Sequence record: PQ850621.1
Source: Escherichia phage NicoleGrasset_Bas72
Reading direction: 5' to 3' (one strand)
DNA length: 43,746 bases
The notes below the pieces were generated by a model. The model was not told where the DNA came from, did no database searches, and saw only the letters and a list, made by a program, of their open reading frames with translations. Within the stretch, counting starts at the first letter, position 1. Each line of letters starts with the position of its first letter. This document shows positions 4,881-43,566 of this stretch, in pieces. A program made the position numbers and the translations under genes.

Positions 4881-4909
4881 AAAGGCCCCATTATGGGGCC
4901 TTAGTTTTC
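4881..4909. terminator. rho-independent terminator, likely bidirectional
   Basis: AGGCCCCA tta TGGGGCCT then TAGTTTT; A-run on the other side; between convergent genes. Confidence 0.6.
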
Positions 4910-5111
4910 AACGGAATCTTGTGTTTAAATCCTGCTCATGGACAACCCTCAGAACAGTGTCATAATCCCCGTATCTTCCAGGTTCAAATATATCTAATGC
5001 CTTGTAAGCAGACATTGCGTCAGGGAAAACCTGCAGAACCTTTTTAACCCGGCACAAGTCACCGTCGAACTCTTCATCGAACTCTTGAACTACTTCGCAA
5101 ATTGCATACAT
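4908..5111 (-). CDS. hypothetical protein, 67 aa, acidic
   Basis: ATG with AGGAGGTG SD; sits between bidirectional terminator 4881-4909 and minus-strand promoter 5139-5167. Confidence 0.5.
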   Translation of the reverse strand: MYAICEVVQEFDEEFDGDLCRVKKVLQVFPDAMSAYKALDIFEPGRYGDYDTVLRVVHEQDLNTRFR

Positions 5112-5138
5112 TTTTCACCTCCTGTTTAAGTTAACTGA

Positions 5139-5167
5139 ATAGTACCCTATTATATTGGGGTGTGCAA
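5139..5167 (-). promoter_or_regulatory. promoter, TTGCAC-N17-TACTAT family
   Basis: On minus strand: TTGCAC, 17-nt spacer accccaatataataggg, TACTAT; drives 4908-5111. Confidence 0.55.
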
Positions 5168-5242
5168 ACTATTTATTTACGTATTCCATTTATTCCACTA
5201 AATTGTAAATATTGGAATAAACTATTCGAATAGTTGACTTTT

Positions 5243-5271
5243 CACTGAAAATGTGCTAAGCTCCACCTGAG
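5243..5271 (+). promoter_or_regulatory. promoter candidate TTGACT-N17-TAAGCT overlapped by a 16-bp palindrome
   Basis: -35 TTGACT at 5243-5248, -10 TAAGCT at 5266-5271; palindrome AACTATTCGAATAGTT at 5229-5244 overlaps the -35. Confidence 0.35.
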
Positions 5272-5439
5272 CTTGTGAAGTATGAACAAGCGACCGCGGC
5301 GCGGGCAGGTAACGGAGCGGGACGTAAGTCCTGAGTGTAGTTACGCTGACGCGTTCGGAAGGGCCATACTCTATTGCTTGTGTAAAAAGTAACAGGTTTA
5401 CTTAGATTACGCCGTTTCTATGTTTAAATGATAAGGACT

Positions 5440-5470
5440 AGCGCCCTGCTTTAAGGCAGGGCTTTACTTA
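5440..5470 (+). terminator. terminator-like hairpin upstream of the spanin genes
   Basis: GCCCTGC tttaag GCAGGGC then TTTACTTA. Confidence 0.4.
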
Positions 5471-5486
5471 TCGAGAAAGGAGAAAC

Positions 5487-5873
5487 ATGAATCTTAAAGC
5501 AACTGTCGTAGCGGGAGCATGTTTCATCATCCTGGCTTACACACACGGCATCTACCAGTACCGCATCGGCTGGAACGAAGGCCGGGCGAATCTCGTTTCT
5601 CAGCAACAGCAGAAAGCACAGGCCGAGATGACTAAGAAAACACAACGGCAGCAGCAGGACGAATCAAAGGCCGCAGCCGCTGACAACGAAGGCAAGACGA
5701 AATCAGAGGTGATCACCCGTGAAGTCGTTAAGTACATTAAAACGCCTGGTCGCAGCGGGTGCACTTTTGACCCTGAGCGCGTGCAGCTCAAGTCCCGCGC
5801 CGTCGCAAACGCTAATTCCATTACCGGATACGACGATGATGCAGCCTCCGTGCAAACTGGCAGCGCCAAGTAG
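5487..5873 (+). CDS. putative i-spanin (Rz-like)
   Basis: AAGGAG SD; N-terminal TM segment ATVVAGACFIILAYTHGIY followed by Q/K/E-rich coiled-coil-like periplasmic region; contains an embedded lipoprotein ORF in another frame. Confidence 0.6.
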   Translation: MNLKATVVAGACFIILAYTHGIYQYRIGWNEGRANLVSQQQQKAQAEMTKKTQRQQQDESKAAAADNEGKTKSEVITREVVKYIKTPGRSGCTFDPERVQLKSRAVANANSITGYDDDAASVQTGSAK

Positions 5874-5982
5874 CGATGCTGACGAGGATTTGGCTATAGA
5901 CGTTCAGAACGCCGAATGCGTGCGGCAACTGCGTCTGAAAGTATTCCAGTTGCAGGATTATGTGAGGAATATTCTGGAATAG
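5719..5982 (+). CDS. putative o-spanin (Rz1-like outer-membrane lipoprotein), GTG start
   Basis: Signal peptide with lipobox LSAC (MKSLSTLKRLVAAGALLTLSAC), Pro-rich mature region; starts inside 5487-5873 in a different frame and extends past it. Confidence 0.55.
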   Translation: MKSLSTLKRLVAAGALLTLSACSSSPAPSQTLIPLPDTTMMQPPCKLAAPSSDADEDLAIDVQNAECVRQLRLKVFQLQDYVRNILE

Positions 5983-6064
5983 TTGCCTTGCATGTTGGAA
6001 TAATTTATTCTTGACATGTAAATCCGGGTGGCCCGGGTTCCAACGTCCAGGGGACATACTGACT

Positions 6065-6766
6065 ATGAATCGTTTTTTACGTTATCCGTTCCAGGAAGAA
6101 GCTGGGGCAGAAGATAAAGCTGGTGGCGGTGACGCGCCGAAAATGTTCACCGCTGAAGAAGTTCAGGCGCTGATTGAGAAAGAAGTTGCCGGGCTTAAGG
6201 CTAATCAGGAAGCATTGTTGGCGGAGAAGAAAGAAGCCGCTCGCAAAGCAAAAGAGGCCGAAGAAGAACGGCAGCGCGCGCACCAGGAGGCGTTAAAAGC
6301 CGCTGGTAAGATGGATGAGTTCGAAAAGACGATTCGTAGCCAGTATGACCCGGTGTTAGCCGAGAAAGACGGTCGCATCTCCAGAATGGCAGAGCGTATC
6401 CTCGGCAGCGAACGTAAAGCGGTGCTAGGCTCTTTCGCGGGTGACTTTATTACCCCAGAAGCAGTGGACATTCTTGCGCCGTTCGTTAAGACTGAGTTCG
6501 AAGGCGATGATGTGGTTACTAAGTTTGTTGGTGCAGACGGTAACGTAATCACGACTGACCCGGAACAGTTCCGCAAATACCTGCGCGAACACAAGGCGTT
6601 TTCGCATTTGATCAAAGCAAATGCAGCTTCCGGCGGCGGGGCTTCCGGTAGCAAAGGCGGCGGGGCCGCACCAGCGTTTAAAGACATGAGTGAAGCAGAG
6701 CGTTTAGCCCTGTATAAATCGAACCCTGCCGAATTTGAACGGCAACTTAAAGCCCTGAGGAAATAA
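6065..6766 (+). CDS. putative capsid scaffolding protein
   Basis: A/E/K-rich helical sequence (EALLAEKKEAARKAKEAEEERQRAHQEALKAAGK) directly upstream of major capsid gene; first in-frame ATG is at 6065. Confidence 0.6.
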   Translation: MNRFLRYPFQEEAGAEDKAGGGDAPKMFTAEEVQALIEKEVAGLKANQEALLAEKKEAARKAKEAEEERQRAHQEALKAAGKMDEFEKTIRSQYDPVLAEKDGRISRMAERILGSERKAVLGSFAGDFITPEAVDILAPFVKTEFEGDDVVTKFVGADGNVITTDPEQFRKYLREHKAFSHLIKANAASGGGASGSKGGGAAPAFKDMSEAERLALYKSNPAEFERQLKALRK

Positions 6767-8576: not shown

Positions 8577-8756
8577 ATGGCAGATAATTACGTAATCCGC
8601 GAAAAGTATACCCACGTTGATATCGTTGACGGACAGGTGATGCCTGTTCGCGGTGTGGTAGAAGCGGATGAACTGGTTGCAACCCAACCAGACAATGAAG
8701 AAGCGCACAACAACGGCGGTGGTACTAAGCGTCGTCGCCGTAAGTCAGAGGAATAA
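8577..8756 (+). CDS. small hypothetical protein (59 aa)
   Basis: ATG with AAGGAAAGG SD; basic C-terminus GGGTKRRRRKSEE; not in the supplied ORF track (below length cutoff). Confidence 0.4.
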   Translation: MADNYVIREKYTHVDIVDGQVMPVRGVVEADELVATQPDNEEAHNNGGGTKRRRRKSEE

Positions 8757-8759
8757 TTT

Positions 8760-9272
8760 ATGCCGCTAATCGTGGAAACTGGGGTGATCGTCCCAAATGC
8801 CGACAGTTACATTAGTCTGGCTGACGCCCGCGCGTTAGCGGCTAATTATGGCCTTGAGCTGCCGGAAGACGATACCGCAGCAGAGGTGGCCTTACGCAAC
8901 GGTGCTACTTATGTAGGGCTTGCAGAACCGCAGATGTGCGGTCGTCGAGTATCCGCCGAACAGTCTCTTGCATACCCCCGCACCGGCGTTACGTTAAACG
9001 GGTTCCCGGTGGTCAACAACGCCATTCCGAAACAGGTGATTCTTGCGCAGGTAATCGCTGCCGCTACATATGGCGAGGGCACCGAAGTCCGGGCTAACTC
9101 AGACGGTCGCGCCGTGCAGACTGAGCGTGTCGAGGGTGCAGTAACAGTGACCTACTTCAACAATGGCAACAGTGGCGCTACGACCGCGATTACCGCTGCT
9201 GACGACGCTTTACGCCCGTTATTGTGTGGCGGTCTTAACAATGGTTTCTCGTTTAACGTGTACCGGGGTTAA
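8760..9272 (+). CDS. head-tail connector / head completion protein (putative)
   Basis: 170 aa ORF in head-to-tail junction position; tightly packed with neighbours. Confidence 0.5.
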   Translation: MPLIVETGVIVPNADSYISLADARALAANYGLELPEDDTAAEVALRNGATYVGLAEPQMCGRRVSAEQSLAYPRTGVTLNGFPVVNNAIPKQVILAQVIAAATYGEGTEVRANSDGRAVQTERVEGAVTVTYFNNGNSGATTAITAADDALRPLLCGGLNNGFSFNVYRG

Positions 9273-14105: not shown

Positions 14106-14133
14106 AATTATACCCTCAGTAAGTTACTGGTGA

Positions 14134-14162
14134 ATAGTACCCTATTATATTGGGGCGCGCAA
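14134..14162 (-). promoter_or_regulatory. promoter, TTGCGC-N17-TACTAT family
   Basis: On minus strand: TTGCGC, spacer gccccaatataataggg, TACTAT; drives cassette 13779-14105 onward. Confidence 0.55.
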
Positions 14163-36686: not shown

Positions 36687-36974
36687 CCGTTTAGCCAACC
36701 CTTCCAGCAAATTTTTATACTCTTCAAAATATTCCTCGACCAAATCATCGCCGAAATAGAAGTCGATATACTCGAGATTATCTCTTACGTTAAGCGATGC
36801 CGACATGGTGCTTAGTTGGCGTAAGCTAATTAGCTTCATTTCTGTTTCTACGCAGAAAGGCCGGTAGGTATCAAGATGGCAAGAGATATTGAAGCATAAA
36901 GCGAACTCTCCGGCCACGGAGTGAACCATATACACTTCGTTTTCTGCTTTATTGTGGAAAATTACGCCTTTCAT
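36684..36974 (-). CDS. hypothetical protein (96 aa)
   Basis: Co-oriented ORF; overlaps upstream gene stop. Confidence 0.45.
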   Translation of the reverse strand: MKGVIFHNKAENEVYMVHSVAGEFALCFNISCHLDTYRPFCVETEMKLISLRQLSTMSASLNVRDNLEYIDFYFGDDLVEEYFEEYKNLLEGLAKR

Positions 36975-37155
36975 TTCACGTTCTCCTTAATCCATGCTTC
37001 GACTTTATTACGGTCAAATGTTCCCGGTAAACGGCGGCCCATAACCTTAATACAGCAGTCAGGGAATTTGCCGCTGCGCAACCAGTTATTAATGGTCTGA
37101 CGTGTCACCCCGATACGCTCGGCTACCTCATTCTGTGTCATGTAATGTTGCATTT
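36971..37155 (-). CDS. small HTH DNA-binding protein (AlpA/excisionase-like fold), start at internal ATG
   Basis: HTH MTQNEVAERIGVTRQTINNWL; ATG at 37155 with AGGGGA SD; track ORF extends to 37267 but upstream part lacks SD. Confidence 0.55.
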
Positions 37156-37250
37156 TTATATCCCCTGTTTGTTTAGTGAAACCGAGTATAGGATAGCGGG
37201 AATGTAAAAGCAACCAACCCCTGCAATATTTAATCTTTACAAAAAAGTTA

Positions 37251-37280
37251 TTGAAAGTTCTTGACACATGTTTGTATAAT
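37251..37280 (+). promoter_or_regulatory. sigma70-like promoter candidate TTGAAA-N18-TATAAT
   Basis: In divergent control region; would transcribe through palindrome 37307-37347 toward hairpin 37482-37510. Confidence 0.35.
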
Positions 37281-37574: not shown

Positions 37575-37603
37575 TTGCACACCCCAACATAATAGGATAC
37601 TAT
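37575..37603 (+). promoter_or_regulatory. promoter, TTGCAC-N17-TACTAT family
   Basis: TTGCAC, spacer accccaacataatagga, TACTAT; about 35 nt upstream of gene at 37638. Confidence 0.55.
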
Positions 37604-37637
37604 TCACTTATCGAAACGAGACAGAGGAGTGAGGGTT

Positions 37638-43162: not shown

Positions 43163-43334
43163 ATGTTCAGCGACATCAACGCAGCAATCGAAGAAGCAAT
43201 CTGGCGCCGTTACAACGGCGAGCAACAGCGTCACTTCTGCCTGGTGCAACGTGGTAACATGGTCGCCGTGGTGCAGGACCGCGATAACAAATATCCGAAT
43301 GCGATGTGGACAACGAGGAATTTCTTAGGATGAT
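43163..43334 (+). CDS. small hypothetical protein (56 aa)
   Basis: ATG immediately after upstream stop; not in ORF track. Confidence 0.3.
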
Positions 43335-43566
43335 TACCAGCATTCCTAACCTGATTAAAGAATATGGCACGATGGCCGAGACATGCCGACAAACCGGCAT
43401 CAACGAAATGACTATTGCTAAGTACAGCAAAGATGTTAACTGCGATCGCCACGTAATTTTTAACAACCGTCTGATGACGCACGTTAAGACAAGCCCGGTG
43501 TTATTCACGCGCCGGGGTATCACTAAAACAGAGCAACGCATTGCTAAAGAGGAGAGTGGGGGATGA
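43331..43566 (+). CDS. hypothetical protein with possible HTH
   Basis: ATG 43331 overlapping upstream stop; segment AETCRQTGINEMTIAKY is HTH-like. Confidence 0.4.

Follow-up and report, generated by a model that had tools for sequence, protein, structure and literature searches.

What does a stretch of DNA without a conserved gene do at the head of the lysis and capsid genes of a phage? The question arises in Escherichia phage NicoleGrasset_Bas72 (record PQ850621.1), whose 43,746 nucleotides (nt) were analysed as one window, and in which the 375 bp at positions 5112-5486 lie between a minus-strand open reading frame (ORF) of 67 amino acids (aa) on the left (4908-5111) and the i-spanin gene on the right (from 5487). 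A preliminary description of this region had pictured it as a non-coding hub carrying a regulated small RNA or structured leader together with a repressor-binding array. Our comparison with related phages bears out a non-coding region with a conserved promoter and a structured RNA that ends in a hairpin before the ribosome-binding site (RBS) of the spanin gene; that this RNA is a free small RNA is not established. Judging from the sequences, we lean towards reading the element as a structured leader or attenuator that acts in cis on the late unit of spanin, scaffold and capsid genes, and whose promoter would be bound by a regulator.

Kagunavirus, to which this genome belongs, and Jerseyvirus and Cornellvirus, also of the Guernseyvirinae, are common phages of E. 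coli and Salmonella and are widely used in therapy and biocontrol collections. The element is the most conserved non-coding feature adjoining their lysis and capsid genes, it holds a covariation-supported RNA family that is absent from Rfam, and a candidate regulator-binding array common to two late promoters accompanies the leader; together they offer a concrete, testable handle on the control of late genes and lysis timing. We found no description of the leader or of the array in the literature.

A covarying RNA upstream of the spanin gene

The predicted plus-strand RNA is roughly 200 nt long (about 5269-5470). Its parts, and the translation start that follows it, are these:

5271-5291, plus strand: hairpin P0 (GCUUGU/ACAAGC) at the 5' end of the RNA
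5294-5358, plus strand: composite hairpin P1-P2-P3 of 65 nt, with 23 base pairs, tandem G-U pairs and a GUAA tetraloop (5324-5327)
5356-5379, plus strand: mostly unpaired motif CGGAAGGGCC-AUA-CUCUAUUGCUU, nearly invariant in Kagunavirus and Jerseyvirus
5443-5472, plus strand: GC-rich, terminator-like hairpin GCCCUGC(U)-UUAA-(G)GCAGGGC (stem 5443-5462) followed by UUUACUUAUC, called by a terminator scan
5476-5489, plus strand: RBS (AAAGGAG) and ATG of the i-spanin gene, read from the sequence

The minimum-free-energy fold of the plus strand from 5268 to 5472 has -69.4 kcal/mol (z = -2.2) and contains P0, P1-P2-P3 and the terminal hairpin. Whether relatives preserve these helices was read from two alignments of different independence. 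When 35 distinct leaders from Kagunavirus and Jerseyvirus are aligned by sequence alone (MAFFT), the helices are 91% paired, as compared with 30-44% for slid partners, and the covariation score is 0.163 against 0.055 or less. The second alignment is based on a covariance model built from Kagunavirus alone, which detects the Jerseyvirus copies at E-values of about 1e-7 to 1e-9; it gives 95% pairing, double changes at 14 of the 29 core pairs and a score of 0.380 (slid controls at most 0.055, none of 500 shuffles reaching it), values that lean towards the structure from which the model was built. Compensatory changes thus exceed the slid and shuffled controls.

The changes are spread over several helices. 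In P1-P2-P3, 10 of the 23 pairs are compensatory, and 88-97% of the cells are paired, compared with 28-40% in slid controls. P3 reads GGGAC/GUCC, GGUGC/GCAC or CCGGAC/GUCCG within Kagunavirus and GGGCG/CGCCC in Jerseyvirus, as seen in the raw alignment, and a C-G pair of P1 has become U-A independently in two relatives (L019, L106) and in Jerseyvirus. Four of the six pairs of P0 change on both sides between lineages, and its Jerseyvirus counterpart, ACGCU-UUC-AGCGU, stands in the same place. In the terminal hairpin, the fifth stem pair (5447:5458) is U-A, C-G or G-C in different phages and one more pair covaries. Conserved G-U pairs identify the plus strand as the functional one. An exhaustive scan of column pairs for further helices in the 3' half returned 4-bp runs only, at chance level with two clades.

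The region is also less variable than the gene that follows it. In a set of 31 Kagunavirus-type sequences, nucleotide diversity is 0.028 in the leader (5263-5486) and, in the i-spanin gene, 0.061, 0.044 and 0.167 at codon positions 1, 2 and 3, which makes the RNA region about sixfold less diverse than the spanin third positions. Many GenBank records, those of Bas73, Schulenburg and SHAK7858 among them, annotate an ORF of 36 aa here (5282-5392) as the coding sequence of a 'hypothetical protein'. In three relatives (L005, L029, L009) 1-nt indels shorten this ORF to 9 or 17 codons; it has a different downstream frame in L019, is extended in L020, carries GTG in place of ATG in L010, and is absent in L106 and in all 11 Jerseyvirus sequences. 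Since the ORF is not conserved and diversity is low, the region is non-coding and under purifying selection, which agrees with the earlier statement that it has no credible ORF; on this comparative evidence the ORF is almost certainly not a gene, and the 'hypothetical protein' is likely a mis-annotation. The mini-ORFs of the leader (MFK, MMFTDIRV and UUG-initiated frames of 3-18 codons) have no RBS and are not conserved.

Distribution and modularity of the RNA family

In sequence searches, the 375 bp are 98.7% identical to the corresponding region of Bas73 and 90-99% identical in 180 of the 181 matching phage records, and no homologue was found in E. coli genomes. More distant copies are recognised by their parts. 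With its filters off, the covariance model places its best Cornellvirus matches in the right position (13.4 bits, E about 0.1; 9.7 bits, E about 1), aligning a P0-like hairpin and a GUAA-capped long hairpin whose sequence is different. In a Cornellvirus-like metagenomic lineage, GCGACCGCG and CGGAAGGGCC still flank the place of P1-P3 but the hairpin itself is missing there, so that P1-P3 does not form an invariant core. Another contig (L128) joins a Cornellvirus-type frame to a Jerseyvirus-like P3. The unpaired motif is recognisable as CGGAAGGGCCGGGGUCUGUUAC and CGGGGAUAGUCUAUUC in two Cornellvirus-type lineages, and a mostly unpaired CGGAAGGG...CUCUAUUG is common to all lineages, with CGGGGAUAGUCUAUUC in Cornellvirus. 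Because Cornellvirus, the metagenomic lineage and L128 keep varying parts, the predicted RNA family is subfamily-wide but modular. The metagenome scan by i-spanin alignment was swamped by low-complexity QQQ patterns and returned three loci, one of them useful (L128), and the contigs given by a corrected pattern search of the sequence collection were almost all already known.

Sub-helices seem to have been exchanged between lineages (L106 1287-1503, L128 240-550, L019 2274-2503), and L019 and L106 contain blocks of compensatory changes, which suggests recombination within the RNA gene. In Serratia phage Eta (L071, 814-1189), a whole lysis cassette of holin, endolysin and Rz stands at this place behind a short leader, whose AUAGUCUCAUU motif resembles the conserved CUCUAUUG/AUAGUCUAUU element.

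The window has no match in Rfam at the gathering threshold, and the region and its counterparts in four other lineages have chance-level matches only at a permissive one (E <= 10). A scan for tRNA and tmRNA found none. We would class the element as a new RNA family of a known kind, the structured leader RNAs of phages and bacteria, coupled to a new operator motif.

The promoter and its half-site array

Five DNA features upstream of the leader and of the scaffold gene are considered next.

5234-5262, plus strand: sigma-70 extended -10 promoter, with TTGACT (5234-5239), 17 nt, TG (5254-5255), c and TAAGCT (5257-5262)
5182-5197, plus strand: direct repeats TATTCCA-N2-TATTCCA, the distal half-sites, at about -87 to -72 from the inferred start
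5214-5227, plus strand: inverted repeat GGAATAAACTATTC (GGAATA-N3-TATTC), the proximal site, separated from the -35 hexamer by exactly 6 bp in three lineages
5220-5235, plus strand: perfect 16-bp palindrome AACTATTCGAATAGTT, reaching two bases into the -35 hexamer and specific to Kagunavirus
5966-6036, plus strand: second array and putative promoter, before the scaffold gene, with GGAATA at 5966 and 5976, -35 TTGCCT at 5983-5988 and -10 TATTCT at 6006-6011

In 31 Kagunavirus relatives the hexamers and the TG are invariant, save for TCGACT in L005, and the spacer varies at 5247, 5253 and 5256, the last being the n of TGn. Jerseyvirus has TAGACT-17-TGtTACGCT and the Cornellvirus-like metagenomic lineage (L120-L125) has TGGACT-17-TGaTAACCT. 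A -35-like hexamer, a spacer of 17 +/- 1, TGn and a -10 hexamer with T1, A2 and T6 are all present; shared by three lineages, this arrangement marks the site as a sigma-70 promoter of the extended -10 type, from which transcription would start at about 5269. The preliminary description had recognised the promoter and placed it at 5243-5271, a shift of 9 nt. The same shift affects its inverted TGGAATA, which stands at 5213-5219 and not at 5222-5228, and its palindrome, which is perfect and does overlap the -35 hexamer but lies at 5220-5235 instead of 5229-5244. Its direct repeats TATTCCA-TT-TATTCCA are present at 5182-5197.

The half-sites are conserved together with their distances. In Kagunavirus, Jerseyvirus and the Cornellvirus-like metagenomic lineage the layout is TATTCC(A)-N2-TATTCC, 16-17 bp, GGAATA-N3-TATTC, 6 bp and the -35 hexamer, the inverted repeat being GGAATACTTTATTC in Jerseyvirus and GGAATAAATTATTC in the Cornellvirus-like lineage. 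Of the 16-bp palindrome, only the left part, GGAATA-N3-TATTC, is kept outside Kagunavirus, and neither Jerseyvirus nor the Cornellvirus-like lineage has it in full. Within the window, TGGAATA occurs 11 times (4.3 +/- 1.9 expected; none of 100 shuffles reaches 11), and clusters of GGAATA/TATTCC occur at two places only in the 43.7 kb, 5182-5219 and 5942-6002. Exact GGAATA-N3-TATTC is found at 5214 and 5997 only; when one mismatch is allowed, there are 8 matches on the two strands (5 distinct sites, palindromic ones being counted twice), with 0.58 expected. The motif is thus over-represented, clustered at promoters and conserved in spacing.

At the second array, GGAATAG abuts TTGCCT, 17 nt separate the latter from TATTCT, and GGAATAATTTATTC (5997-6010) lies within the spacer and the -10 hexamer. 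Jerseyvirus and Cornellvirus keep this array, including cases in which spanin and scaffold are separated by an extra gene, and TTGCCT-17-TATTCT would be the promoter of the scaffold and capsid genes. Since this putative scaffold/capsid promoter, 780 bp downstream of the first, carries the same motifs, the pair would be under common regulation, and we infer that a single DNA-binding regulator, of phage or host, acts on both. Position-locked conservation of this kind is expected for a regulator, as the preliminary description had proposed; its choice of a repressor is not established, an activator being equally possible, and neither is the operator role that it gave to the Kagunavirus-only palindrome. 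Among 30 small or early proteins, a Pfam scan recognised as DNA-binding only HTH_17 and NinH-like domains, the other matches being domains of unknown function. Generic candidates are therefore the HTH_17 protein (excisionase/MerR-like; 36971-37264, minus strand) and the NinH-like protein (43306-43563, plus strand), which scores below the curated cut-off. To our knowledge GGAATA/TATTCC matches no known consensus; ArgR, RcsB, NarL, DnaA and Fis were compared by eye only.

Several resemblances around these sites were noted in passing. A 5' hairpin, CCGGG-TGG-CCCGG (6024-6036), lies 12 nt before the scaffold RBS and is kept in Kagunavirus, Jerseyvirus and Cornellvirus. The G-rich motif of the leader (5356-5376, CGGAAGGGCCATACTCTATTG) resembles the translation-initiation region of the scaffold gene (6045-6067, CCAGGGGACATACTGACTATG), and the likeness could reflect a decayed duplicate or a shared protein- or ribosome-binding site. 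We rejected both a decayed scaffold initiation copy and a paralogous origin of the two sites, the similarity being slight (z about 2.8; equalled by 33 of 500 shuffles). At 8750-8763, in the junction before the head-tail adaptor gene, GGAATAATTTATGC differs from the inverted repeat by one mismatch and is probably no more than an RBS plus ATG.

A proposed leader at the 5' end of the late unit

The window is a complete or near-complete genome of a Kagunavirus, a siphovirus of the Guernseyvirinae that infects E. coli, and is collinear with the BASEL phages Bas70-76; its scaffold protein is 100% identical to the counterpart in Bas71. Upstream of the region are the portal, head-morphogenesis and Hoc-like genes, and downstream of the i-spanin gene are those for the o-spanin, the scaffold and the major capsid protein. 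A bidirectional terminator at 4882-4902 closes the upstream operon, and in Jerseyvirus the same terminator directly precedes the array. With this terminator just upstream, a new transcription unit begins at the array, and the order of terminator, array, promoter, structured RNA, GC hairpin and RBS marks the 5' end of the late unit.

Based on this arrangement, we propose that a predicted regulator would bind the fixed half-site array in front of the extended -10 promoter (5234-5262), and that transcription starting near 5269 would produce a leader of roughly 200 nt, made of P0, P1-P2-P3, the G-rich/CUAUUG motif, a variable 3' domain and the GC hairpin. Acting in cis, the leader would set the transcription or translation that reaches the i- and o-spanin genes and, by read-through, the scaffold and capsid genes; it probably controls how much expression reaches the late genes. 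In Kagunavirus the last hairpin and its T-tract would form a leaky intrinsic terminator, at which part of the transcripts would end as an RNA of ~200 nt and the rest continue, and a free small RNA of that size may be a by-product there. Attenuation, antitermination, stabilisation of the mRNA or tuning of spanin translation would each be a way for the leader to act.

One comparative argument concerns Cornellvirus of the Shemara type, in which the array and the promoter are replaced by a different promoter with a perfect TATAAT, and a homologous leader with the same hairpin architecture is kept. Since the leader was retained when array and promoter were replaced, its role would be independent of the array and would be exerted, most simply, after initiation and in cis.

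Several observations weigh against this reading. The promoter is missed by a consensus scan because TAAGCT matches only 3 of 6 positions, and its support comes from conservation, the -10 hexamer being weak. No protein could be assigned as the regulator that binds the array. The T-tract behind the last hairpin is weaker in Jerseyvirus (UUAGCGUAU) and absent in Cornellvirus types, which have UGUUAC. The model-based alignment has the bias already described. The one RNA-sequencing paper on Guernseyvirinae reports at gene level only. Two alternative pairings were not adopted. A long-range helix joining the RNA's 5' end to the segment ahead of the RBS, suggested by RNAalifold with two double changes between Kagunavirus and Jerseyvirus, is no better than shuffles in five of six lineage representatives and competes with the well-supported P0; an antiterminator pairing of the G-rich motif, or of the 5' strand of P3, with the 5' arm of the hairpin has 4-6 bp and is uncompensated in L019, L106 and L005.

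The terminal hairpin and a possible small RNA acting in trans

The terminator-like hairpin that the preliminary description had seen before the spanin RBS is present at 5443-5462, is followed by TTTACTTATC and ends 13 nt before the RBS. The Kagunavirus terminator candidate that the scan called has an 8-bp stem and a UUUACUUAU tail; the GC hairpin is kept 12-16 nt before the RBS in all lineages and forms in every predicted minimum-free-energy fold. Its stem, CCCCGC/GCGGGG in most relatives, is like that of the E. coli type I-E CRISPR repeat, a kinship that we rejected because the stem position varies between U-A, C-G and G-C.

With such an end, the ~200-nt RNA could be a stand-alone small RNA, terminated at 5443-5472 and acting in trans on host or phage mRNAs or by titrating a protein, with spanin expression as incidental read-through. 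This is the foremost alternative, and we consider it unlikely. The promoter-to-terminator unit of Kagunavirus, with its GC stem and UUUACUUAU tail, speaks in its favour, as do several GGA-containing purine motifs and a conservation that exceeds that of the flanking genes, unpaired stretches included. However, the hairpin and its distance to the RBS are kept where the T-tract is poor (UUAGCGUAU) or absent (UGUUAC); with such tails, termination is unlikely to be the universally conserved function, and a small RNA acting only in trans becomes less likely than a leader. The tail is also too short and too interrupted for a typical Hfq-type RNA, complementarity to the translation-initiation regions of the phage was no better than that of a shuffled leader in a crude scan, there is no homologue in the host, and the element always stands immediately upstream of the first lysis or late gene.

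Known leaders and a possible RNA acting on the polymerase

The closest known system in function and layout would be the late leader of phage lambda, in which transcription from pR' gives a 194-nt '6S' transcript that ends at tR' unless Q provides read-through. Both place a host-polymerase promoter right in front of lysis genes that are followed by head genes; both have, as a prediction in our case, a transcript of some 200 nt that runs to an intrinsic terminator (here a candidate one) just before the first late gene; and in both, control is likely to be exerted after initiation. Unlike in lambda, no match to the Q or N families was found in the Pfam scan of the 30 small or early proteins, and a Q-binding element or a sigma-dependent pause element could not be shown here. 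Elaborate folding and covariation-type selection set our RNA apart, neither being a known feature of the lambda 6S RNA; moreover, the terminator tail is weak outside Kagunavirus and a half-site array lies upstream. In the early transcribed region, the sequences of Kagunavirus and Jerseyvirus are entirely different.

Two other comparisons appear looser. The put RNAs of phage HK022 are cis-acting antiterminator RNAs that modify the polymerase, and the likeness is one of architecture only: two adjacent stem-loops right after the promoter and before terminators, and no dedicated antiterminator protein evident. The element described here is, however, about three times longer, and part of it is dispensable in one lineage. 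Riboswitch and attenuator leaders share with it the order of promoter, conserved structured domain, terminator-like hairpin and RBS, and a conservation above that of the regulated gene; they differ in that our element has no Rfam match even at permissive thresholds and no supported terminator/antiterminator alternative, and in that its peripheral helices are swapped between lineages. As to the array, the operators of phages (lambda OR/OL and the tandem heptads of ribbon-helix-helix proteins) likewise combine short direct and inverted half-sites at fixed promoter distances and are duplicated at a second promoter, whereas the sites here lie upstream of the -35 hexamer at the first location and inside the spacer and the -10 hexamer at the second.

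These comparisons bear on the idea that the leader acts on the polymerase itself, by processive antitermination of the put type, or works as a switch that senses a ligand or protein, in either case deciding whether transcription passes the hairpin and the terminators that lie further on within the 19-kb structural operon. Two adjacent conserved hairpins between the promoter and the terminator-like hairpin, followed by a long late operon, would suit such a role; so would the retention of the leader where the promoter was swapped for one with TATAAT, and the lack of a Q- or N-type antiterminator among the 30 proteins. Yet no alternative fold supported by covariation was found, the terminator is present in all predicted minimum-free-energy folds, no Rfam family is similar, and P1-P3 is missing in the Cornellvirus-like metagenomic lineage, which leads us to hold this explanation for quite improbable. 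A broader version, according to which the leader would represent a new class of cis-acting phage RNA that acts on the transcription or translation machinery, as a put-like antiterminator or a factor or ligand switch, and times spanin and capsid expression in a subfamily without a recognisable late-gene regulator, strikes us as doubtful.

The left 70 bp and the mosaic junction

The hub of the preliminary description extended over all 375 bp; on its left side, this picture is not borne out. In BLAST comparisons with 38 related loci, homology breaks at 5108-5111, at 5136 or at 5182, and the conserved unit starts exactly at the first TATTCCA (5182), so that the conserved part is 5182-5486. The remaining 70 bp (5112-5181) are outside it and are part of a swappable minus-strand promoter and 5' untranslated region (UTR) cassette, with this feature:

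5135-5165, minus strand: promoter/5'-UTR module of the 67-aa gene, with TATAAT at 5154->5149 and no good -35

The minus-strand promoter announced at 5139-5167 thus exists, with a perfect TATAAT, but as a module that spans 5135-5165 and has no good -35. Its 31-nt block, GCACACCCCAATATAATAGGGTACTATTCAG, occurs in three copies in the genome, at 5135-5165 (minus), 14130-14160 (minus) and 37577-37607 (plus), with at most 3 mismatches and 0 copies expected, and is a reusable promoter/5'-UTR cassette, probably the early promoter module of the phage. Each of the copies precedes a different unit, namely the 67-aa gene, a minus-strand island and a rightward block of small genes.

The breaks at 5136 or 5182, and the differing minus-strand genes inserted to the left of them, would also be expected if the region were a recombination 'linker', or a promoter with an unremarkable 5' UTR, whose fold has no specific function. 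We regard this as very improbable: 14 of 29 pairs have compensatory changes, leader diversity is below that of the second codon positions of the neighbouring gene, and lineages that can hardly be aligned in sequence share the architecture. Least credible of all is a gene for the 36-aa protein (5282-5392) or a replication origin or packaging site with iterons, since the annotations in Bas73, Schulenburg and SHAK7858 and the iteron-like repeats beside an AT-rich stretch are outweighed by an ORF that many relatives, and all Jerseyvirus, have frameshifted, truncated or not at all, by a GC skew that turns at about 37 kb and at about 24 kb and gives no signal at 5.2 kb, and by repeats in fixed register to the -35 hexamer at two promoters.

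The segment 5108-5182 is itself a mosaic junction. In several relatives (L002, L069, L070, L040), differing minus-strand genes lie between the Hoc-like gene and the array, among them a 173-aa ORF annotated as 'sliding clamp', a RusA-like resolvase and a metallophosphatase; Jerseyvirus has none. These genes resemble moron-type insertions, and the two whose sequences were compared, that of the window and CECAV_044, have similar 5'-UTRs.

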